Source: Patescibacteria group bacterium
GTDB taxonomy: Bacteria; Patescibacteriota; UBA1384; XYA2-FULL-43-10
NCBI GenBank assembly: GCA_041674405.1
Contig: JBAYVT010000006.1
Location: forward strand, 25,153-57,152
Length of the DNA: 32,000 bases
Direction: 5' to 3'
A program made the position numbers and the translations under genes. Below the pieces are notes generated by a model. That model was not told the origin of the DNA. It did no database searches and was given only the letters and a program-made list of their open reading frames with translations. Below, in pieces: positions 12,144-29,144 of this stretch (position 1 is the first letter of the stretch; every line of letters begins with the position of its first letter).

Positions 12144-12417
12144 GCGTTTTTATGGGAAAAAAGGACATATTTGTAAATTTACTAGTGCTGTAGCTTATTC
12201 AACAACCAAAACTACTATTAGACAATTGCTTAGCAATAAAGCGACTAGCTATAGTGTTGATTAACTATTGAGCAATCCACAATCTGTTCACAACTCTGGG
12301 GAGAAGCTGGGGATAAAACCCCAGTTTTTAGTTGTTAGTTTTTAGTTATTCGTTATGGGAGCACTCATTTATACTCTAGTTTTCGTCATATGGGGGAGAC
12401 ATCTATAATGAATTTAC

Positions 12418-12520: not shown

Positions 12521-12551
12521 TAATTTCAAATTATAAATGGAGCGTAGCGAA

Positions 12552-14297
12552 ATGTCTTTGTATCGAAAATACAGGCCGCAGAAATTCAATGATCTTGTTG
12601 GGCAAGATCATATTCGTGATACTCTGCTTCAAGCAGTAAAAGATAACCAGATTTCACATGCCTATCTTTTCACTGGGCCACGCGGAACCGGCAAAACCAC
12701 AGCTGCAAGGCTGATTGCCAAAGTTGCAAATTGCCACGAGATTCTTGAATCAATAAAAAGCGGGAAGACATCTTCTGGTGAGCCATGCAATAATTGCGAA
12801 TCTTGCAAAGACATACTTTCAAATAAATCAATCGACATCATAGAAATTGATGCTGCATCGAACAGGGGAATAGACGAGATAAGAGAGCTTCGCGAGAATG
12901 TTAAATTCACGCCGGCGAAATCAAAATACAAGGTTTATATCATAGATGAAGTTCATATGTTGACCAAAGAAGCTTTCAATGCGCTTTTGAAAACTCTGGA
13001 GGAACCGCCTGCGCATGCGATTTTCATCTTGGCGACGACCGAAGCGCACAAAGTGCCGGCAACGATTGTTTCCCGTACCCAGCGTTTTGATTTTCACCGC
13101 ATCGGCAAAGATGATCTTAAAAAGAACCTTGAAAAGATCGCCAAAGCGGAAAAAATCGATATCGAACCCGAAGCAATTTCTTTGATAATTTCGGCAGCCG
13201 AAGGCGGACACCGCGATGCGATTTCGCTTCTCGACCAGGTGTCGGGAATCGAAAAAAAAGTAAGTGCAGAATCGGTCAGAAATATATTGGGACTTGTCCC
13301 AAGCGAAGAAGTGTTTGCACTTCTGGGGGCGATTTTTAATACCAATCCGGAGGAGGGATTAAAAATCGCCCATCGCTTGTTTGAAACCGGCCACGACATG
13401 GCAAACTTGAACAAGCAGATTATCGAAACACTGCGCCGGATTCTCCTTTTTTTGATGTCGGAAAAATTTCTTTTTGAAGATACAAAAGAGAATGAAATAG
13501 CTATCAAAAAAACCTGTGAAGAGTTGAACGAAAGTGGCGGTTCAACCGCCAAAATCACAGCCCTGATTGATGTTTTTATTGAATCGGGCAAGCTTCTCAA
13601 GGATGTCAACATGCCGATACTGCCAATCGAGATAGCGATTGTTGAGGGAAGCGTTCTCTTCGAGAAAATGCCAAAAGACAAATTGCAAATGACAAATAAA
13701 ATATCAAATCCGAATGTCCAAGATCCAAAAACGGATAGTCATTCCGACCAATCCGCCAGCTGGCGGAGAGCGGAGGAATCTCCAAAAGAACCTGACCGCA
13801 ATAATTTTCAAAAGATCTCTCCATCCCACTCCGCCGAGGTTTCGAGAGACAAGCAAAATCTAGATGACAAGAAAGAAGAATTAGAAAACCGAAATGAAAA
13901 AATCGAGATGGGAGAGGAGAAAAAAACCACATCTCACAACTCACATCCCGCAAAACCAGCCGAAGTAACTTCGGCCCCTGTTATTGAGATGACTCTGGAT
14001 AGTTGGCAGAAAATTATTGCCGAGATCAAAAATGAAAACACATCGCTTGCGGCGCTTCTGCGAGATTCGAAACCAGTGGCACTCGAGGGCGAAAAGATGA
14101 TTCTGGGCGTCAAATTTCCATTTCATAAAGACAAAATCTCCGAGCCGAAAAATATCCAGATCATCGAGGAAACGATCAAAAAATTGACCGGCAAAACCTA
14201 TATTGTAGAAGTTAAAATTGCTGATCTGCGAGCAAAACCGAAAGAGAAAGCATCGGACGACGAACTGCAGAAAGCAGCAGAAGAGATTTTCTCATAA
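12552..14297 (+). CDS. dnaX: DNA polymerase III subunit gamma/tau
   Basis: MSLYRKYRPQKFNDLVGQDHI, Walker A GPRGTGKTT, Zn module CNNCESC, DEVHML, SRTQRF, and a C-terminal DnaX domain (SWQKIIAEIKNENTSLAALLRDSKPV...). ATG 12552 follows GGAGC; the track start at 12537 has no SD. Confidence 0.92.
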   Translation: MSLYRKYRPQKFNDLVGQDHIRDTLLQAVKDNQISHAYLFTGPRGTGKTTAARLIAKVANCHEILESIKSGKTSSGEPCNNCESCKDILSNKSIDIIEIDAASNRGIDEIRELRENVKFTPAKSKYKVYIIDEVHMLTKEAFNALLKTLEEPPAHAIFILATTEAHKVPATIVSRTQRFDFHRIGKDDLKKNLEKIAKAEKIDIEPEAISLIISAAEGGHRDAISLLDQVSGIEKKVSAESVRNILGLVPSEEVFALLGAIFNTNPEEGLKIAHRLFETGHDMANLNKQIIETLRRILLFLMSEKFLFEDTKENEIAIKKTCEELNESGGSTAKITALIDVFIESGKLLKDVNMPILPIEIAIVEGSVLFEKMPKDKLQMTNKISNPNVQDPKTDSHSDQSASWRRAEESPKEPDRNNFQKISPSHSAEVSRDKQNLDDKKEELENRNEKIEMGEEKKTTSHNSHPAKPAEVTSAPVIEMTLDSWQKIIAEIKNENTSLAALLRDSKPVALEGEKMILGVKFPFHKDKISEPKNIQIIEETIKKLTGKTYIVEVKIADLRAKPKEKASDDELQKAAEEIFS

Positions 14298-14389
14298 TGT
14301 CAAAATCCGAATGTCGAATGTCAAACAAAAATATTAAATTTCCAATTTATTTGTAATTTGAAATTTGTAATTCATGTGTTGGAGGGTCT

Positions 14390-15823
14390 GTGCCTCGTGA
14401 TAATGAAAAAAAACAGAATAATGAACGCAAAAAGAAGGTCGTCATTCCTTCCGGAGTTCGGATTCCGCCGCAAAATGTCGATGCCGAACGCTCAGTTTTG
14501 GGTGCTATTCTTATTGATAAGGATGCAATTATCAAAGTAGCCGATATCGTCCGTCCGGAAGATTTCTACGAGTTTCGCCACGAGACGATTTTTTCGGCGA
14601 TGCTCGAACTTTTTGATAAGCGCCAACCGATTGATATAATCACGCTTTCCGAAACATTAGAAGCAATGGAAAAGCTTAAGGAAATTGGAGGCTCGAGTTA
14701 TCTTGCGGATATTGTAAATTCTACACCCTCTGCTTCCAACATCGTTTACTATGCGCAAATTGTCCGCGACAAGGCGGTTTTGCGCCGGCTTATTGAATCG
14801 TCGGGAAACATCAATCAGCTTGGTTATGATGAAGATGCCGATATTTCCGATACGCTGGACAAAGCGGAACAGCTTCTTTTTGCCGTCTCGCAGAAATTCA
14901 TGAAAGAGAAATTTACGGCGGTTAAAGATGTGCTTACAGAAGCTTTCGATCGTATCGACAAGATTCATAAGGATAAGGATAAGGGGGCAATCCGCGGCGT
15001 GCCATCCGGTTTTCGTGATCTTGACAACATCACTGCCGGCTTTCAGAATAGCGACCTTCTGATTCTTGCTGCCAGGCCTTCCATGGGTAAAACTTCCTTC
15101 GCCTTAAACCTTGCCGAACACGCGGCGATCGAGGAAAAAATTCCGGTCGGAATTTTTTCCTTGGAAATGAGCAAAGAGCAGCTCGTCGACAGGCTTCTTG
15201 CATCGCAGGCCGGGGTGGATTCCTGGAAGCTGAGAACGGGAAATTTATCAGACGAAGATTTTCCAAAAATTGGTTATGCGATGGGAGTCTTGTCGGAAGC
15301 GCCGCTCTTCATCGACGACACGCCGGGGGCAAATGTGATGGAAATTCGTGCCAAGGCTCGCCGCCTGCAGATGGAGCATGGGCTTGGGCTGGTAATCATC
15401 GACTACCTTCAGCTTATGGAAGGAAAATCCCATTCCGGTGACTCAAATCGAGTGCAGGAAATATCGGAAATATCCCGCTCACTCAAGGGCTTGGCGCGTG
15501 AGCTTAAAGTTCCGGTGATCGCACTATCACAGCTCTCCCGTGCAGTCGAGCACCGGCCTGACAAGCGACCGCAATTATCCGACTTGCGTGAATCTGGTTC
15601 TATCGAGCAAGATGCCGATATCGTGATGTTCCTTTATCGCGAAGAGTATTATGAGCCGGAAACCTCGAAGAAGGGAATTACTGAAGTCTTGATCAAGAAG
15701 CATAGAAATGGCCCGACGGGCGGGATGGAGCTCTTCTTCCAGCCTGAGCAGATGCGCTTCCGCGATCTCGAACGCGCCCGCTCCGCCGATATTTCTCCTA
15801 AAGATTTGGAACCAGTGGACTGA
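14390..15823 (+). CDS. dnaB: Replicative DNA helicase DnaB
   Basis: PPQNVDAERSVLGAIL, Walker A ARPSMGKTSFAL, IIDYLQLM, SQLSR, RESGSIEQDAD. GTG start 4 nt after GGAGGG. Confidence 0.95.
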   Translation: MPRDNEKKQNNERKKKVVIPSGVRIPPQNVDAERSVLGAILIDKDAIIKVADIVRPEDFYEFRHETIFSAMLELFDKRQPIDIITLSETLEAMEKLKEIGGSSYLADIVNSTPSASNIVYYAQIVRDKAVLRRLIESSGNINQLGYDEDADISDTLDKAEQLLFAVSQKFMKEKFTAVKDVLTEAFDRIDKIHKDKDKGAIRGVPSGFRDLDNITAGFQNSDLLILAARPSMGKTSFALNLAEHAAIEEKIPVGIFSLEMSKEQLVDRLLASQAGVDSWKLRTGNLSDEDFPKIGYAMGVLSEAPLFIDDTPGANVMEIRAKARRLQMEHGLGLVIIDYLQLMEGKSHSGDSNRVQEISEISRSLKGLARELKVPVIALSQLSRAVEHRPDKRPQLSDLRESGSIEQDADIVMFLYREEYYEPETSKKGITEVLIKKHRNGPTGGMELFFQPEQMRFRDLERARSADISPKDLEPVD

Positions 15824-16061
15824 GTCCCAAGGGGATGAAACACTGCTTGTCCCGCGTAGCTTCAGCGAAGTGGGGAGCGCTTTCGAAGGGCCAGTATATT
15901 GAGTTCATAAAGTTCATAAGGCATGCCCCATAGTGAAATAGCAGTTTCTGCTACTGGGATCCAAAATGTCTGTAAAGTCTATCATGCTGCGATGTTGACT
16001 ATTTTTGTGTTTTGATCTAATTTAGCCACGAGTAAACCATACTGCTTCGGAGGTGATTTCC

Positions 16062-16280
16062 GTGGCTCATCGCGGGAAGGGGGTGTTCAGGCGCAGGACC
16101 TGGGAGCCAAGGCGTCCGGTGTACATCACGCCGGAAGTAGTGGGAGGAAAGATTGCACGTGGAAAATGCCAGTGCGGCGAGCTGGTACCGACTCCGGAGA
16201 ACAGCGAGTTAGCGATTTTTTGCCCGGGATGCGGGCGGAGAATTGCTGGCAGCAATCGTTTCGCCGAGCTTTCGCATTGA
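16062..16280 (+). CDS. Small (72 aa) basic CxC...CxxC zinc-ribbon-like orphan protein in a GC-rich islet
   Basis: GGAGG (16049-16053), 8-nt spacer, GTG 16062. Sequence ...RGKCQCGELVPTPENSELAIFCPGCGRRI... A perfect 10-bp hairpin follows the stop directly. Local GC is clearly above the flanks. The opposite-strand ORF 16067..16294 has no SD. Confidence 0.5.
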   Translation: MAHRGKGVFRRRTWEPRRPVYITPEVVGGKIARGKCQCGELVPTPENSELAIFCPGCGRRIAGSNRFAELSH

Positions 16281-16307
16281 GTCCCGCCCTTCACCAGAGG
16301 GCGGGAC
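16281..16307 (+). terminator. Perfect 10-bp GC hairpin directly after the small ORF stop (weak T-tract)
   Basis: gtcccgccct tcaccag agggcgggac. Confidence 0.5.
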
Positions 16308-16385
16308 TTCGACCATTAATATAAAAAAACTTGCAACAGGACATGAAAAATATCTGGCGTGTTTTTTGGCGGGGCATATTAATGG

Positions 16386-16414
16386 TTGACATCATTAAGT
16401 ACAAAATATATAAT
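16386..16414 (+). promoter_or_regulatory. Perfect consensus sigma70 promoter TTGACA-17-TATAAT (plus a second extended -10, TGtTATAAT, at 16414-16422)
   Basis: ttgaca (16386-16391), 17-nt spacer, tataat (16409-16414). No protein gene follows. Confidence 0.55.
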
Positions 16415-16421
16415 GTTATAA

Positions 16422-16520
16422 TCACTTTAAAAATTGAATAGTGTTAGTGCCGGAGGGGCACGATAGAATCTCAAATATCAAATATCAAAGATATGATGCG
16501 CCTCCGAACGGCGCATTTTT
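16422..16520 (+). ncRNA. Candidate ~95-nt small RNA or leader (promoter to intrinsic terminator)
   Basis: Bounded by the consensus promoter and the terminator atgcgcc-tccgaac-ggcgcat-ttttgttt (16496-16524). Internal hairpin gtgcc-GGAGG-ggcac (16447-16461). No family recognised. Confidence 0.35.
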
Positions 16521-16524
16521 GTTT
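16496..16524 (+). terminator. Intrinsic terminator (7-bp GC stem, CCTCC-containing loop, T-tract)
   Basis: atgcgcc tccgaac ggcgcat ttttgttt. Confidence 0.65.
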
Positions 16525-16637
16525 GCATGAGTGAGATGGGAATTGAGAAAGGTTCGCTCCCGCCTTTCTCTCCAAGGGATTAAACATCAATCGATAAAAC
16601 AAGCGGTTATATTTAATCCCTCCCAGCTCATTCCTGC

Positions 16638-16735
16638 AAAAACAAAAAAGAAAAACAAAGAAAATCAGAAACGGAAGAAATGGAAAAAACAAAAGAACAT
16701 TAAAAAAAGCAGGAAAAAATCCAAACGAGGATAGG
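16638..16735 (+). other. 98-nt polypurine, A-rich tract
   Basis: By my count 65 A, 17 G and only 16 pyrimidines in 98 nt. It reads largely as consecutive A-R-N triplets. Both overlapping track ORFs (K-rich on +, F-rich on -) look like products of this composition. Confidence 0.8.
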
Positions 16736-16862
16736 TCAAAGCGTCTTTTGTTCGACAATAAGTCGAGTAAGGGATGCCACAACGACTTAAAATGCCATTG
16801 CGGCACGCCTCATGGGTGTGAGTTGAATCGACCGGGCAATAATTTAAAATATTTGTTCCCGA

Positions 16863-16939
16863 TAAGCTCGAATATCACTTGCACCCAATCAAAAGAGTTC
16901 ATCAATACGATGAGCTTTTTTGTTTAATTTGGCTTGAAT
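16863..16939 (+). repeat. 77-bp direct repeat, copy 1 (contains terminator-like hairpin plus T-tract)
   Basis: taagctcgaatatcacttgcacccaatcaaaagagttcatcAATACgatgagcttttttgtttaatttggcttgaat. Flanked by the 9-mer tgttcccga at 16854-16862 and 16947-16955. Confidence 0.9.
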
Positions 16940-17024
16940 CGGGAACTGTTCCCGACCCACACATCATTCAGGTTCGTCTCGAGTCTTGCAGTCTCGCAGT
17001 CGAAACTTCATTACGCGGGGCAGG

Positions 17025-17101
17025 TAAGCTCGAATATCACTTGCACCCAATCAAAAGAGTTCATCTACAAGATGAGCTTTTTTGTTTAATTTGGCTTGAA
17101 T
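17025..17101 (+). repeat. 77-bp direct repeat, copy 2
   Basis: Starts exactly 162 nt after copy 1. 73/77 positions are identical and all 4 differences lie inside the 5-nt hairpin loop (TACAA versus AATAC). Confidence 0.9.
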
Positions 17102-17208
17102 AATGTATTACTTTGCCCGTGAAGACACTCCAAAATTTAGTTGTTTCACTCCTGCAGTTTCGGGCTCTTCACTGAGAAAAGCTACTATTTTAGAATTAGA
17201 TTTTTTGA

Positions 17209-17237
17209 TTGACAATTTGTTGGATGAAAAATATAAT
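17209..17237 (+). promoter_or_regulatory. Second perfect consensus sigma70 promoter TTGACA-17-TATAAT, upstream of the large secreted protein
   Basis: ttgaca (17209-17214), 17-nt spacer, tataat (17232-17237), about 38 nt before the TTG start at 17275. Confidence 0.55.
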
Positions 17238-17274
17238 TAACTCCAGAAGCTAAAAAATTTGAAAACGAGGGGAT

Positions 17275-23049: not shown

Positions 23050-23907
23050 ATGTTTGAATCAAAAGAAAAACTGATCCAGTATCTCAAAGAAAATCACCTC
23101 TACACCAACAAATTGCTGGGGCAGAATTTTTTGGTGGATGAAAACGCTCTGACTAAAATTATTGAAGCGGGTGATATTGAACCTGCAGATACCATTATCG
23201 AAATCGGACCTGGGTTGGGGGTACTGACGGAGAGGCTAGTAGAAAAGGCCAACAAGGTAATTTCCATTGAACTGGATCAAAAACTCGCAGAGCTTTTATC
23301 TCAAAATTCAAATCTCAAATCTCAAATTGAAATCTCAAAACTTGAAATCTTGAATGCTAATGCATTAGATTTTGATCTATCTAAGCTGCAAGCTGAAAGC
23401 TACAAGCTAATAGCTAACATTCCTTATTACATCACTTCGAAAATTCTGGAGAAATTTTTGACAGCGGAAAAAAAGCCGAAAACTATCGTTCTTCTCGTTC
23501 AGAAAGAGGTGGCGGAGAGAATTTGCGCACCGTCCGGCGCAATGTCGGTTTTATCCGTTGCGGTACAGGCATACGGAGAACCGGAAATAGTTGACATCGT
23601 TTCGGCAGCATCATTCTTTCCGGCACCGAAGGTTGACTCAGCGATCTTGAAAGTGAAAGGTATAAATTGGAAAGTGAAAAGTATTACGGAAAAAGATTTC
23701 TTTCAGGTGGTCAAGATCGGGTTTGCGGCACGGAGGAAAACGCTTCTCAATAATTTATCGGCGGCCTTAAGGCTTGACAAGGGTACTATCCTAAACATTT
23801 TAAAATCTGTAAAATTAAATGAGAATGTGCGTGCACAGGAGCTGTCGATCGCGGAGTGGCAAACACTCGCGATCAATGTCAAATTAAAAATTTCAAATGA
23901 CAAATAA
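23050..23907 (+). CDS. rsmA: 16S rRNA (adenine1518/1519-N6)-dimethyltransferase RsmA/KsgA
   Basis: LGQNFLVDENALTKII, SAM motif IIEIGPGLGVLT, NIPYYITS, FFPAPKVDS. Carries an in-frame oligo-repeat insertion at 23299-23354. Confidence 0.92.
   Translation: MFESKEKLIQYLKENHLYTNKLLGQNFLVDENALTKIIEAGDIEPADTIIEIGPGLGVLTERLVEKANKVISIELDQKLAELLSQNSNLKSQIEISKLEILNANALDFDLSKLQAESYKLIANIPYYITSKILEKFLTAEKKPKTIVLLVQKEVAERICAPSGAMSVLSVAVQAYGEPEIVDIVSAASFFPAPKVDSAILKVKGINWKVKSITEKDFFQVVKIGFAARRKTLLNNLSAALRLDKGTILNILKSVKLNENVRAQELSIAEWQTLAINVKLKISNDK
23299..23354. repeat. ~7-nt periodic TCAAATC-type repeat inside rsmA
   Basis: tctcaaaattcaaatctcaaatctcaaattgaaatctcaaaacttgaaatcttgaat, translated in frame as SQNSNLKSQIEISKLEILN. 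A related word, atctcaaatatcaaatatcaaag, occurs at 16469-16491. Confidence 0.7.
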
Positions 23908-23995
23908 AATGACGAACTTTGGTCAGAATGTATCCATTGGAAATTTCATTTGAAATTAGATATTCGGATTTAGTCATTCACGCCGGAGGTGTGTT

Positions 23996-25719: not shown

Positions 25720-25865
25720 ACTGACCCCCTTTCTTCTGAGCGCGGCTTGATAATAGCACTAAAATAAAAAATGTGCTATACTTTTAAATTAATTCAAAAG
25801 TCAATCCGCCAGCTGGCGGACAAACGTCAAAATTGCAACTCAAAATTAATCAATTTTTTGGGTAA

Positions 25866-26600
25866 ATGGACATCGCAGATCAAAAATTCGGAACATTATA
25901 TATCGTCGCAACACCAATCGGGAATATGGGCGATATCACTTTGCGTGCGATCGAAACGCTGAAATCGGTCGATTTGATCGCTTGCGAAGATACGCGGGTA
26001 TCGAAAAAGCTTCTCGATCATCTTGGCATCCAGAAAAAAATGATTTCACTGCACCAACATTCCGGCGAAGACAAATTTAATTTGATTCTTCGGGCTCTTA
26101 CGAGGGGAGTTAATGTCGCGTACATCACCGATGGTGGCACCCCAGGAATTTCTGATCCGGGGCAAGAATTAGCTAAGAACTTAAAACTAAAAACTAATAA
26201 CTTAGTGAAGGTAATTCCAATACCGGGACCGTCAGCTGTTGTTGCAGCGATTTCTGTCTCAGGAATGGTCGAAAAAGAATTCTACTTTGTCGGATTTTTG
26301 CCGAAGAAAAAAGGCAGGCAAACCACGTTCAAATTTTTTGAATCGTTGAATTGTCCAATTGTTATTTACGAATCAGCGATCCGGCTTCAGAAGACATTAG
26401 AAGACGTCAAGAACTATCTCGGAGGGGATACCGAAGTCTTCATTGCGCGCGAGATGACAAAAATGTTCGAGGAATATTGGGGAGGCAATATCGAACATGT
26501 CATTTCTGAACTAAAAAACCACACGCTAAAAGGGGAGATAGTGCTAATAGTCAGAAAGTCCGTAAAGTCCGTAAAGTCAATAAAGTCGAATGACAACTAA
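25866..26600 (+). CDS. rsmI: 16S rRNA (cytidine1402-2'-O)-methyltransferase RsmI
   Basis: GTLYIVATPIGNMGDITLRAIETLKSVDLIACEDTR, DGGTPGISDPG, IPGPSA, FIAREMTKMFEE. Repeat-derived internal segment at 26185-26201 and repeat-derived tail at 26555-26590. Confidence 0.92.
   Translation: MDIADQKFGTLYIVATPIGNMGDITLRAIETLKSVDLIACEDTRVSKKLLDHLGIQKKMISLHQHSGEDKFNLILRALTRGVNVAYITDGGTPGISDPGQELAKNLKLKTNNLVKVIPIPGPSAVVAAISVSGMVEKEFYFVGFLPKKKGRQTTFKFFESLNCPIVIYESAIRLQKTLEDVKNYLGGDTEVFIAREMTKMFEEYWGGNIEHVISELKNHTLKGEIVLIVRKSVKSVKSIKSNDN
26555..26590. repeat. Four tandem 9-bp AAAGTCNNN units forming the RsmI C-terminal tail and supplying the GNAT start codon
   Basis: aaagtccgt aaagtccgt aaagtcaat aaagtcgaa, then tg. 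Read in frame as KSVKSVKSIKSNDN*. The ATG at 26590 begins the next gene. Confidence 0.85.
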
Positions 26601-27674: not shown

Positions 27675-29144
27675 ATGTCCGAGAAAAAAGTTTTTGTGAC
27701 AACAGCAATCGATTATGTAAATGCTAAGCCGCATATTGGCCATGCTTTGGAAAAGATTCAAGCCGATGTTCTTGTTCGCTGGAATCGTGATTCTCTTCGC
27801 AACAGCACTTATTTTCTGTCTGGAACCGATGAAAATGGGCTCAAGAACGTCCAAACTGCAAAAGCCGAAAATATGCCGGTGAAGAAATATGTTGATAGAA
27901 ATTCAACTTATTTTACTGCGCTTAAGTCGATGCTAAATCTTACATATGATCAGTTTATTCGTACAACAGAGGCAAAACATTTTGAAGGATCACAAAAATT
28001 GTGGAAAGCGTTCAAGCCGGAGGACATCTGCAAGAAAAAGTATAAAGGCTTATATTGTGTAGGTTGTGAGGAATTTAAGACAGAGAAGGATCTTGTCGAT
28101 GGCAAGTGCCCCGAGCACAATTGCCCGCCCGAAGCTGTGGAAGAGGAAAATTACTTTTTTAAGTTATCGAATTACCAAGAGCAAATTCTTGATCTGATTA
28201 GGACTGATAAAGTAAAAATTTTGCCGGAATACAGGAAAAATGAGGTTATCAACTTCATCGAATCGGGATTAAACGATCTTTCAATCTCCCGATCTGCCGA
28301 GCGGGTAGAAAATTGGGGCGTTCCAGTGCCCGGTGACGATTCCCAAATCATGTATGTCTGGATCGATGCGCTCGCCAATTACATTACGGCGCTCGATTAC
28401 GACAAAAACGGCGAACTGTTTGAAAAATACTGGTTAAATGGCAATGAGCGAATTCATATAGTAGGCAAGGGGATTCTACGTTTTCATGCAATTTATTGGA
28501 TCGCGATGTTGCTCTCGGCTGGTCTGCCGTTGCCAACGGCTGTGCTATCACATGAATATTTGACGATCAATGGCAAGAAAATTTCCAAGTCTCTTGGCAA
28601 TGTCATTAATCCGGAGGAAGTGGTTGAAAAATATGGCGTCGACGGTGCGCGTTACGTTCTTCTGACATCACTTCCATGGAGCAAGGATGGCGATATAACC
28701 TGGGAGAGGATGAGCGAGAAATATGCTTCCGATCTTTCAAACAACATCGGAAATCTGGTTCAGCGAACGATTGCGATGATCAAGAAATACGATGTGAAAG
28801 TCGAAAGTCCCGAGTCGAAAGTCCATAAAGTCGAAGGTGAGGACAATAACTTTTTTAATGAGTCAGAATTCAAAGAAGAGATCGAATCGTTGAAGATGGA
28901 GTTGGCTCTGAAGCGAGTTATTGCTTCTGCCCAATCGCTAAACCAATACATCGATGAAAATAAGCCCTGGTCCCTTGCAAAAACCGACATGGAAAAGTGT
29001 ACCGAGGTTTTAAATAATGTCCGAGATAATCTAATTTATCTTTCAGATTTTATAATGCCATTTATGCCTGAAGCAGGGAAAGGGATGAAAAAGCAGCTCG
29101 AAACTTTGGAACCAGAGCCGCTATTTCCGCGCATCGAGAAATAA
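27675..29144 (+). CDS. metG: Methionine--tRNA ligase
   Basis: HIGH (PHIGHALE), Zn knuckles CVGCEEF...CPEHNC, KISKSLGN (KMSKS). ATG 27675 is spaced properly from AGGAG (27660-27664); ATG 27666 is too close. Repeat-derived in-frame segment at 28797-28835. Confidence 0.92.
   Translation: MSEKKVFVTTAIDYVNAKPHIGHALEKIQADVLVRWNRDSLRNSTYFLSGTDENGLKNVQTAKAENMPVKKYVDRNSTYFTALKSMLNLTYDQFIRTTEAKHFEGSQKLWKAFKPEDICKKKYKGLYCVGCEEFKTEKDLVDGKCPEHNCPPEAVEEENYFFKLSNYQEQILDLIRTDKVKILPEYRKNEVINFIESGLNDLSISRSAERVENWGVPVPGDDSQIMYVWIDALANYITALDYDKNGELFEKYWLNGNERIHIVGKGILRFHAIYWIAMLLSAGLPLPTAVLSHEYLTINGKKISKSLGNVINPEEVVEKYGVDGARYVLLTSLPWSKDGDITWERMSEKYASDLSNNIGNLVQRTIAMIKKYDVKVESPESKVHKVEGEDNNFFNESEFKEEIESLKMELALKRVIASAQSLNQYIDENKPWSLAKTDMEKCTEVLNNVRDNLIYLSDFIMPFMPEAGKGMKKQLETLEPEPLFPRIEK
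28797..28835. repeat. AAAGTC oligo-repeat segment inside metG
   Basis: aaagtcgaaagtcccgagtcgaaagtccataaagtcgaa, read in frame as KVESPESKVHKVE. 28820-28835 is identical to 4037-4052. Confidence 0.75.

Follow-up and report, generated by a model that had tools for sequence, protein, structure and literature searches.

Short repeats and palindromes of several kinds are known from bacterial chromosomes. REP and REPIN elements are short, GC-rich, imperfect palindromes that lie outside genes in tens to hundreds of copies per genome and are tied to Y1 transposases of the RAYT type; the gene for their presumed mobilising enzyme is flanked by REP palindromes. The partition site parS and the Noc-binding sites are perfect palindromes of 16 bp (or 14 bp), present in a few to tens of copies per chromosome and often within coding sequence; parS is conserved in sequence, in its origin-proximal position and in its presence across species. 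As summarised in PMC10969869, the Rickettsia palindromic elements (RPEs; Ogata et al. 2000, 2002) are dispersed palindromes of about 100-150 bp that occur in frame in housekeeping genes, form several families and are confined to Rickettsia. Heptanucleotide simple-sequence repeats are a further known class, ascribed to polymerase slippage (Mrazek, Guo & Shah 2007, as summarised in PMC4679880, which also deals with the TAACTGA repeats of Beggiatoaceae). Here we describe a stretch of 32,000 nucleotides from a Patescibacteria genome (G000:C6:25153-57152, hereafter the window) in which the gene dnaX, encoding the tau-type DNA polymerase III clamp-loader subunit, carries repeats of the spacer type in the linker between its domains, including the 16-nt perfect palindrome TCCGCCAGCTGGCGGA, called PAL below. 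We consider it likely that this linker is an unconstrained, translated tether that has accumulated such repeats, PAL among them, as selfish or neutral DNA.

Like the RPEs, PAL forms a dispersed hairpin family that is found in spacers and, unusually often, in frame in unrelated and intact housekeeping genes, where it is an insertion relative to orthologues and adds a short peptide without breaking the gene, and its host genome is small and reduced. Unlike them, it measures 16 nt, typically adds four codons, keeps an identical sequence throughout a phylum and outside it and often lies within other small elements; neither PAL nor the 131-nt outer element around it in dnaX is related in sequence to RPEs, and the host belongs to the Patescibacteria. 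PAL thus works like an RPE but, differing in size, sequence and host, is not a member of that group. The dnaX case adds to the described systems the extreme brevity of PAL, its exact identity across phyla, the four-codon rule and the nesting in an element bounded by GTCAT…ATGAC; also, the A-rich part of the linker is a copy of the stop-codon trailer of the genome. A full-text literature search of incomplete coverage found no paper on such elements in Patescibacteria, an absence that is to be read as unproven.

Word array and outer element in the dnaX linker

The study genome G000 is an assembly of 929 kb in 7 contigs with about 42% GC. Genomes compared with it carry labels of the form Gnnn, and the closest dnaX orthologues, all on metagenome contigs, are P0003, P0004 and P0005. 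Pfam places the domains DNA_pol3_delta2, lid and gamma3 of DnaX at aa 23-370 and DnaX_C at aa 488-569. In an alignment of 15 orthologues the linker is hypervariable in length and sequence, with no conservation, and the C-terminal domain with its tail ...ELQKAAEEIFS is conserved, which indicates that the frame is kept and that the repeat region would be read through. The features concerned are the following.

12537..14297, + strand: dnaX, tau-type DNA polymerase III clamp-loader subunit, an intact open reading frame (ORF) of 586 aa (translation, Pfam)
13647..13997, + strand: dnaX inter-domain linker, aa 371-487 (Pfam boundaries, alignment of 15 orthologues)
13666..13731, + strand: A-rich heptamer word array of the AAATGAC type, containing modules (a) and (b), read as KMPKDKLQMTNKISNPNVQDPK (Tandem Repeats Finder, repeat family match)
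13738..13868, + strand: hairpin-type element of 131 nt bounded by GTCATTCCGA … CTAGATGAC, read as SHSD…LDD (orthologue comparison)
13752..13767, no strand: PAL in dnaX, with a 6-bp stem and an AGCT loop, read as (Q)SASWR
14298..14372, + strand: post-stop trailer of dnaX, heptamer words (tgtcaaaatccgaatgtcgaatgtcaaac) followed by inverted words, holding the partner of (b)
23875..23975, + strand: 3' end, stop codon and trailer of rsmA, holding the partner of (a)
25805..25820, no strand: second PAL of the window, between caaaagtcaa / caaacgtcaa word repeats, with the rsmI-like start 45 nt downstream

An earlier note on this DNA had described the linker as a mosaic of three dispersed modules, each with an exact match elsewhere in the window. 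All three matches are real: the 17 nt of module (a) at 13686-13702 recur at 23894-23910, the 13 nt of module (b) at 13706-13718 recur at 14303-14315 in the dnaX-dnaB spacer, and the 19 nt of module (c) at 13749-13767 recur at 25802-25820, both copies containing the perfect palindrome (13752-13767 and 25805-25820). The gene names given there also hold, as judged from Pfam domains, for dnaX, for dnaB (14390-15823), for the RrnaAD gene rsmA/ksgA (23050-23907) and for the rsmI-like TP_methylase gene (25866-26600). That the matches are not random was confirmed by shuffling, each word giving 0 matches in each of 100 dinucleotide-preserving shuffles, and by the k-mer census of the assembly, which counted three exact copies of (a), two of (b), three of (c) and five of the palindrome; a composition model expects 0.0005, 0.04 and 0.0001 copies genome-wide for (a), (b) and the palindrome, respectively. 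The 17-mer supplies the stop codon of rsmA (…tca aat gac aaa TAA), as had been said, and dnaX reads it one base out of register relative to rsmA (caa atg aca aat aaa ata). The number of modules has to be lowered to two: (a) and (b) are parts of one heptamer word array, (b) alone having just two exact copies in the genome, and module (c) is nested inside a longer element bounded by GTCAT…ATGAC.

Tandem Repeats Finder reports a 7-nt tandem array beyond chance at 13666-13697 (period 7, 4.6 copies, consensus AAATGAC) and similar period-7 arrays in most spacers of the window as well as in genes. The word family of the linker array (AATGAC/AATGTC/AATCCG) matches the trailers at 14296-14331 and 23875-23910. 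When up to 2 mismatches are allowed, (a) and (b) occur together at no fewer than six loci of G000, namely the dnaX linker, the dnaX-dnaB spacer, the 3' end of rsmA with the adjoining spacer, C4:147151-147179, C4:23224-23262 and C1:69253-69319. At five loci the array begins at or just past a stop codon and on the same strand as the gene, for example TAAtatcaaaatccgaatgacaaatgacaaataaaatgac past the gene ending at C4:147195 and TAAtgtcaaaatccgaatgtcgaatgtcaaac past dnaX itself, and several of these stop-anchored arrays then carry the same words inverted. Within the dnaX trailer the program located CGAATGT repeats at 14308-14322 and ATTTGTA repeats at 14349-14372; the trailer of rsmA also has an inverted copy of (b) with 1 mismatch, aaatccgaatatc on the - strand. 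In the linker, ataaaatatcaaatccgaatgtc nearly duplicates a genuine trailer (tctaatatcaaaatccgaatgac) that follows a stop codon. When 24,186 coding windows are ranked by the 11-mers they have in common with intergenic DNA, the 120-nt window of this stretch is among the highest 0.12%. This ranking, the recurrence of the trailers and the dispersed family of PAL described below bear out the central claim of the note, that repeats of the spacer type and a palindrome lie inside the coding sequence of the dnaX linker.

The (a)/(b) arrays resemble prokaryotic heptanucleotide repeats in that they are short tandem 7-nt arrays, mostly intergenic and beside gene ends, and they were presumably made by polymerase slippage. 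They differ in that one word family recurs at many loci of G000, starts at stop codons and forms paired inverted arrays, and in that arrays also lie in frame inside genes (dnaX, rsmA, rsmI and the methionyl-tRNA synthetase gene, MetRS). In rsmA/ksgA the in-frame period-7 arrays at 23298-23354 (ATCTCAA x6) and 23383-23416 (AAGCTGC x3.7) encode LSQNSNLKSQIEISKLEILN and KLQAESYKLIAN. Arrays of heptamers or nonamers also stand in frame in rsmI and MetRS, at 26173-26202, 26555-26587 and 28796-28823 of the window. That of rsmI gives the peptide AKNLKLKTNNL, and the C-terminal tail of the same protein, RKSVKSVKSIKSNDN up to the stop codon, derives from AAAGTCCGT repeats that run into the next ORF; in MetRS, VKVESPESKV is encoded by GAAAGTC x4.

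Comparison with the closest orthologues (P0003, 72% identity; P0004 and P0005, 67% each) separates the age of the array and the outer element from that of PAL. The linkers of all three open with an A-rich word array of the same kind, and P0005 has the word caaatgacaaacaaaat, identical to module (a) at 16 of 17 positions, in a reading frame other than that of G000. An element with the boundaries GTCATTCTGA…CAGGATGAC is present as well in P0003 (80 nt) and P0005 (56 nt), in the same codon phase as in G000 (AGT CAT TCY GA, read as SHS followed by D or E) and without PAL in either. The G000 element shares these boundaries but has a 131-nt interior that begins with PAL. As they are shared with the closest orthologues, neither the array nor the outer element is a recent insertion; both date back to the ancestor of this small clade. 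In the alignment of orthologues, which the earlier note had proposed as a test for a lineage-specific insertion, only the 16-nt palindrome is specific to this lineage. PAL is an optional internal module of the outer element, either gained by nesting in G000 or lost in the sisters.

A 73-nt intergenic element of G027 and two Hainich groundwater contigs, GTCATCCCGActga-PAL-gaacggaGGGATCCCTCGG…CGGGATRAC, matches the G000 element over the first 46 nt of the latter, and by manual count 23 of 30 flanking positions outside the palindrome are identical. A gapped pattern scan of metagenome contigs found no empty dnaX site at strain level, and a second scan retrieved the 73-nt element alone, in two intergenic copies. 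Other proteins of the candidate phyla radiation (CPR) also bear the peptide signature SHSE…QDD, for example IscS of G033, where it lies beside another PAL. The dnaX element, 56-131 nt long, resembles a miniature inverted-repeat transposable element (MITE) in its imperfect terminal inverted repeats (GTCATTCYGA…CWRGATGAC; GTCATTCCGA…CTAGATGAC in G000, GTCATTCTGA…CAGGATGAC in P0003 and P0005, GTCATCCCGA…CGGGATGAC in the intergenic copies), its lack of any coding capacity of its own and its variable interior. No target-site duplication is visible at coding copies, and no related autonomous transposase was found for it; its dispersed copies alone suggest that the outer element may be mobile. Other hairpin elements of the GTCAT…ATGAC type lie in frame in G000 genes at C4:23715-23790 and C3:9878; one such element, of 72 nt and with perfect 11-bp ends (GTCATTGCGAG…CTCGCAATGAC), is read as …VIARNEMTKQSIKKIAAPSGLAMTG… in an ORF of 435 aa. 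An outer stem around the dnaX PAL that appeared to covary (ATTCC/GGAAT vs ATCCC/GGGAT) looked compensatory, but its fold is weak and it was not relied on.

Copies of the palindrome in spacers and genes

Besides its five exact copies, PAL has seven near copies in G000 (at most 2 mismatches; 0.24 expected). In these, 9 of 11 mismatches fall on central bases and the stem TCCGCC/GGCGGA persists; the pattern CCGCC-N4-GGCGG occurs 14 times in the genome, against 0-5 times for composition-matched stems. Three of the five exact copies lie 1-45 nt upstream of gene starts. Exact PAL is present in 20 of 41 relatives from the same order, in up to 22 copies (reversed control, 0 of 41), and in 51 of 301 genomes sampled evenly from the Patescibacteria phylum, in up to 33 copies (reversed control, 1 of 301). 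Among the 80 stretches listed for GTDB matches, about 33 are from Patescibacteria and about 20 from Bacteroidota, with others from Elusimicrobia and Cloacimonadota, and 55 viral contigs also carry it. The suggestion in the earlier note that the repeats might have been seeded from the coding sequence finds no support, given that spacers and other genes together hold far more copies than the single one in dnaX.

Multi-copy loci in Bacteroidota were seen, among the matches listed, in a metagenome-assembled genome (MAG) of Cyclobacteriaceae (L103:5000-7650) and in the isolate Mucilaginibacter flavidus (L141:4200-7200), and there PAL stands at the apex of larger repeats of their own. One Bacteroidota locus has an element of about 150 nt in four copies within 2.5 kb; another has three gtcattgcgaggaacga-PAL-ctacgcatgc copies around a coding region of GIY-YIG, AAA-type ATPase and primase-like character.

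Presence and position of PAL change between close relatives. Of two congeners, G033 has 10 copies and G035 has 0, a difference that speaks for turnover and not for a conserved host site. G063 (11 copies) and G160 (7 copies), also of one genus, share no exact PAL site among 15 loci compared, and one orthologous site holds a variant with 1 mismatch. A role as terminator was rejected, PAL having no T-tail and its flanks being A-rich or T-rich words on either strand, and an Rfam search of eight PAL loci returned tRNAs only. A link to RAYT/IS200 transposases was rejected as well: the Y1 family PF01797 has 0 matches in G000, and its presence in 10 of 20 PAL-positive vs 15 of 21 PAL-negative relatives shows no association across the 41 genomes. 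PAL is like a REP palindrome in being short and GC-rich and in bracketing a small nuclease gene in one Wolfebacteria locus. Unlike the REP/RAYT system, it occurs in G000 without a Y1_Tnp gene, and its candidate partner would be a GIY-YIG protein.

About 26 of 63 inspected contexts (~40%) place PAL within long ORFs of more than 15 gene families. These include AtpA (two genomes, same position), the GroEL tail (two), ComM (two), Hsp20 (two, two codons apart), LeuRS (between zinc-knuckle cysteines), DnaG, enolase, GlyRS, GyrB, GltX, MetRS, IscS, RpsF, RpsA and, in the C-terminal tail, the DnaX of G015. All six frames of PAL are free of stop codons, and the copies within ORFs are read as PPAGG (20), SASWR (4) or RQLA (2). 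In G000 itself there are four, in dnaX (QSASWR), in a GT4 glycosyltransferase gene at C4:130580 (SQSASWR) and, as loop variants, in RecG (NPPAGG) and in a radical-SAM gene (SANRR). Predicted peptides that span them are …TDSHSDQSASWR… in dnaX, …NINPPAGGQISK… in RecG and …SQSASWR… in the glycosyltransferase.

Relative to orthologues free of PAL, the proteins are longer by four residues in ComM, Hsp20 (G033), LeuRS, DnaG, enolase, GlyRS, the glycosyltransferase, RecG and DnaX (G015), and by six in Hsp20 (G039) and GltX; same-genus pairs differ by +12 nt in Hsp20, GyrB and GatC and by +3 nt in the GroEL tail. From these length differences, the usual outcome would be that 16 nt replace about 4 nt, which preserves the frame. 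Matches in UvrD of G012 and in an Elusimicrobiota GroEL were set aside: they bring no change of length, fall on native RQLA(D/E) motifs and are probably coding coincidences. The GyrB of G033 (L063), which carries PAL, also has an insert resembling an intein (…CFSGDTKIALTDGR…VFVHNS…) within its Toprim region. A tblastn search with AtpA of two relatives gave no match in G000 at E <= 1e-5; G000 may lack the alpha subunit of the F-type ATP synthase, or the assembly may miss the gene.

Origin and role of the linker repeats

On the reading of the linker as a tether open to repeats, two kinds of repeat would have entered it, a slippage-prone 7-nt array that elsewhere forms the trailers of stop codons, and a small GTCAT…ATGAC hairpin element with PAL at its apex. 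PAL itself is a dispersed repeat of fast turnover that lands in spacers and in the loops, linkers and tails of housekeeping proteins, probably spreading by a templated copy or patch mechanism. It could persist in genes because none of its six frames holds a stop, because it usually adds 12 nt and because the resulting peptides (PPAGG, SASWR, RQLA) are short and flexible. Translation through the dnaX copy would give …SHSDQSASWRRAEE…, which is not expected to affect the clamp loader, and the consequence for dnaX is probably nil, since the element sits in a tether without conserved sequence. The patchiness of PAL within genera, its unshared positions and its scatter over unrelated genes argue against a conserved host function and suggest that it is selfish or neutral. 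The case shows that protein length in ultra-small bacteria changes partly through a recognisable and datable DNA process, and not through ordinary indels: PAL and 7-nt arrays have entered the loops, linkers and tails of essential enzymes time and again. In annotation, spurious "insertions", split contigs and low-complexity peptides (PPAGG, SHSE…QDD) arise from such repeats, which affects alignments of CPR protein families and also offers strain-level markers. The question raised is which enzyme moves so small an element across phyla.

Several observations weigh against this reading. PAL could be linked to no transposase or other gene for mobilisation, either in G000 or by the distribution of Y1 genes in the 41 relatives, and no target-site duplication was seen at the coding copies; direct repeats beside PAL in G000 are accounted for by the surrounding word arrays. 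The outer stem around the dnaX PAL folds weakly (z = -1.8). The closest filled and empty pairs (G033/G035 and G063/G160) are only about 70-87% identical in nucleotides, a distance at which exact junctions and the direction of gain or loss are unproven. That the element is translated would follow from the intact frame and the conserved downstream domain alone. Finally, the identity of the 16-mer across phyla could reflect selection on the sequence itself, and the retention of PAL by five lineages at one specific site beside a GIY-YIG gene hints that it has a function at that site.

The last observation leads to a refinement that is compatible with the tether reading and that we regard as doubtful, in which PAL is the cognate site of small GIY-YIG nucleases, as a site of binding or cleavage or as a by-product, and solitary copies such as that of dnaX are spread or maintained by the enzyme. 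In G023, G039, G016, G160 and a Wolfebacteria MAG, PAL occupies the D-loop position of a 5'-partial copy of tRNA-Asn that lies directly upstream of a GIY-YIG ORF of about 85 aa, which is followed by an intact tRNA-Asn. PAL there replaces 3-4 D-loop bases of the tRNA copy, consistent with the rule of +12 nt. The Wolfebacteria MAG has its GIY-YIG gene bracketed by two PAL-bearing pseudo-copies of tRNA-Asn, a GIY-YIG ORF of Mucilaginibacter is preceded by a PAL at a distance of 142 nt, and among the 10 GIY-YIG matches in 1.6 Mb of loci with PAL, 7 have a PAL no more than 162 nt away. However, five of these seven were seeds of the profile, and four of the five represent one orthologous cassette. 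The majority of PAL copies are not close to a GIY-YIG gene, the majority of GIY-YIG genes lack a PAL, and the counts of the two track each other weakly. In G015 (22 copies), G033 (10 copies) and G000, no PAL stands in the tRNA-Asn/GIY-YIG cassette, and the cassette of G000 (C3:86844-87053 with tRNA-Asn) has a different hairpin where PAL would sit. A minimal mobile unit of 16 bp that replaces about 4 bp, adds four codons and is propagated or maintained across phyla (Patescibacteria, Bacteroidota, Elusimicrobia, Cloacimonadota) by small GIY-YIG enzymes, with PAL at the border of their tRNA-Asn-linked cassette, seems to us unlikely. If it existed, it would be a repeat-and-enzyme system like that of REP and RAYT, on another nuclease fold, that routinely remodels essential proteins. 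As an observation apart, the cassette of tRNA-Asn pseudo-copy, GIY-YIG gene and intact tRNA-Asn is found in at least six Patescibacteria lineages of different classes (L011, L055, L073 and L288, at about position 1500; L148:2094-2524; G000 C3:86440-87200), and the pseudo-copy tracks the tRNA sequence of its own host genome.

More directly opposed to a tether filled with selfish or neutral repeats is the view that PAL is a selected host DNA site, be it a non-canonical site of the parS or Noc type, an operator or an RNA hairpin signal, and that the dnaX copy is functional. The exact 16-mer is kept across very divergent genomes, near copies keep the stem while the loop varies, three of the five G000 copies precede gene starts by 1-45 nt, and G000 has no canonical parS at up to 2 mismatches. 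We nevertheless hold this view to be improbable. PAL was not found in 250 of the 301 genomes sampled from the phylum, only one of two congeners has it (10 vs 0 copies), its exact positions are unshared between congeners, its copies are unclustered, its hairpin without a T-tail is no intrinsic terminator, and about 40% of copies lie in ORFs as four-codon additions at non-homologous places. For partition in particular PAL was rejected as too patchy and without shared exact positions (G063/G160); unlike parS, it comes and goes even inside a genus and is not conserved in position.

The linker could also be read as a fossil or working gene end, dnaX having once ended after domain III in a gamma-like form or yielding a gamma-type product by frameshift. 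A short gamma-type DnaX product is made by ribosome or polymerase frameshift in E. coli and Thermus. The close resemblance of the linker stretch to real post-stop trailers, and the stops (TGA, TAA) that both alternative frames of module (a) hold just past domain III, are in its favour; such stops are, however, expected in AT-rich DNA. Reading of the sequence found no X XXY YYZ heptamer 5-10 nt upstream of PAL or of any other hairpin, and thus no canonical slippery heptamer beside a stimulatory structure, the sole candidate being CCA AAA G about 85 nt upstream of PAL. Moreover, each of the 15 orthologues in the alignment is a single ORF that includes the C-terminal domain, P0005 reads the homologous word in a different frame, as expected of unconstrained DNA, and in G015 the palindrome of dnaX lies in the C-terminal tail instead. 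We judge a gene end very improbable, and still less credit is due to the notion that the matches are low-complexity coincidences or assembly artefacts. Modules (a) and (b) are indeed A-rich and of low complexity, (b) with its two exact copies. Against coincidence stand the empty shuffles, the joint occurrence of (a) and (b) at six loci or more and the five exact copies of a GC-rich palindrome where 0.0001 are expected, and against artefact the same elements in independent assemblies of many studies, one isolate genome included, with all carrier genes staying in frame.

Other features of the window

An Rfam search at gathering thresholds gave zero matches across the 32-kb window. In the 444-nt spacer upstream of dnaX, the blocks at 12284-12313 and 12370-12411 (ctgttcacaacYctggggagaagctgggga and tatactcYagttttcg…ctataatg) are conserved in the contigs of P0003, P0005 and P0004, and the remainder differs; the blocks have no Rfam match and could be a promoter or a small RNA. 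Downstream of dnaB, a region of 1.45 kb without a long ORF (15824-17274) contains a 77-nt direct repeat (16863-16939 and 17025-17101), the copies of which are 162 nt apart, 96% identical and end in a hairpin and a T-run.

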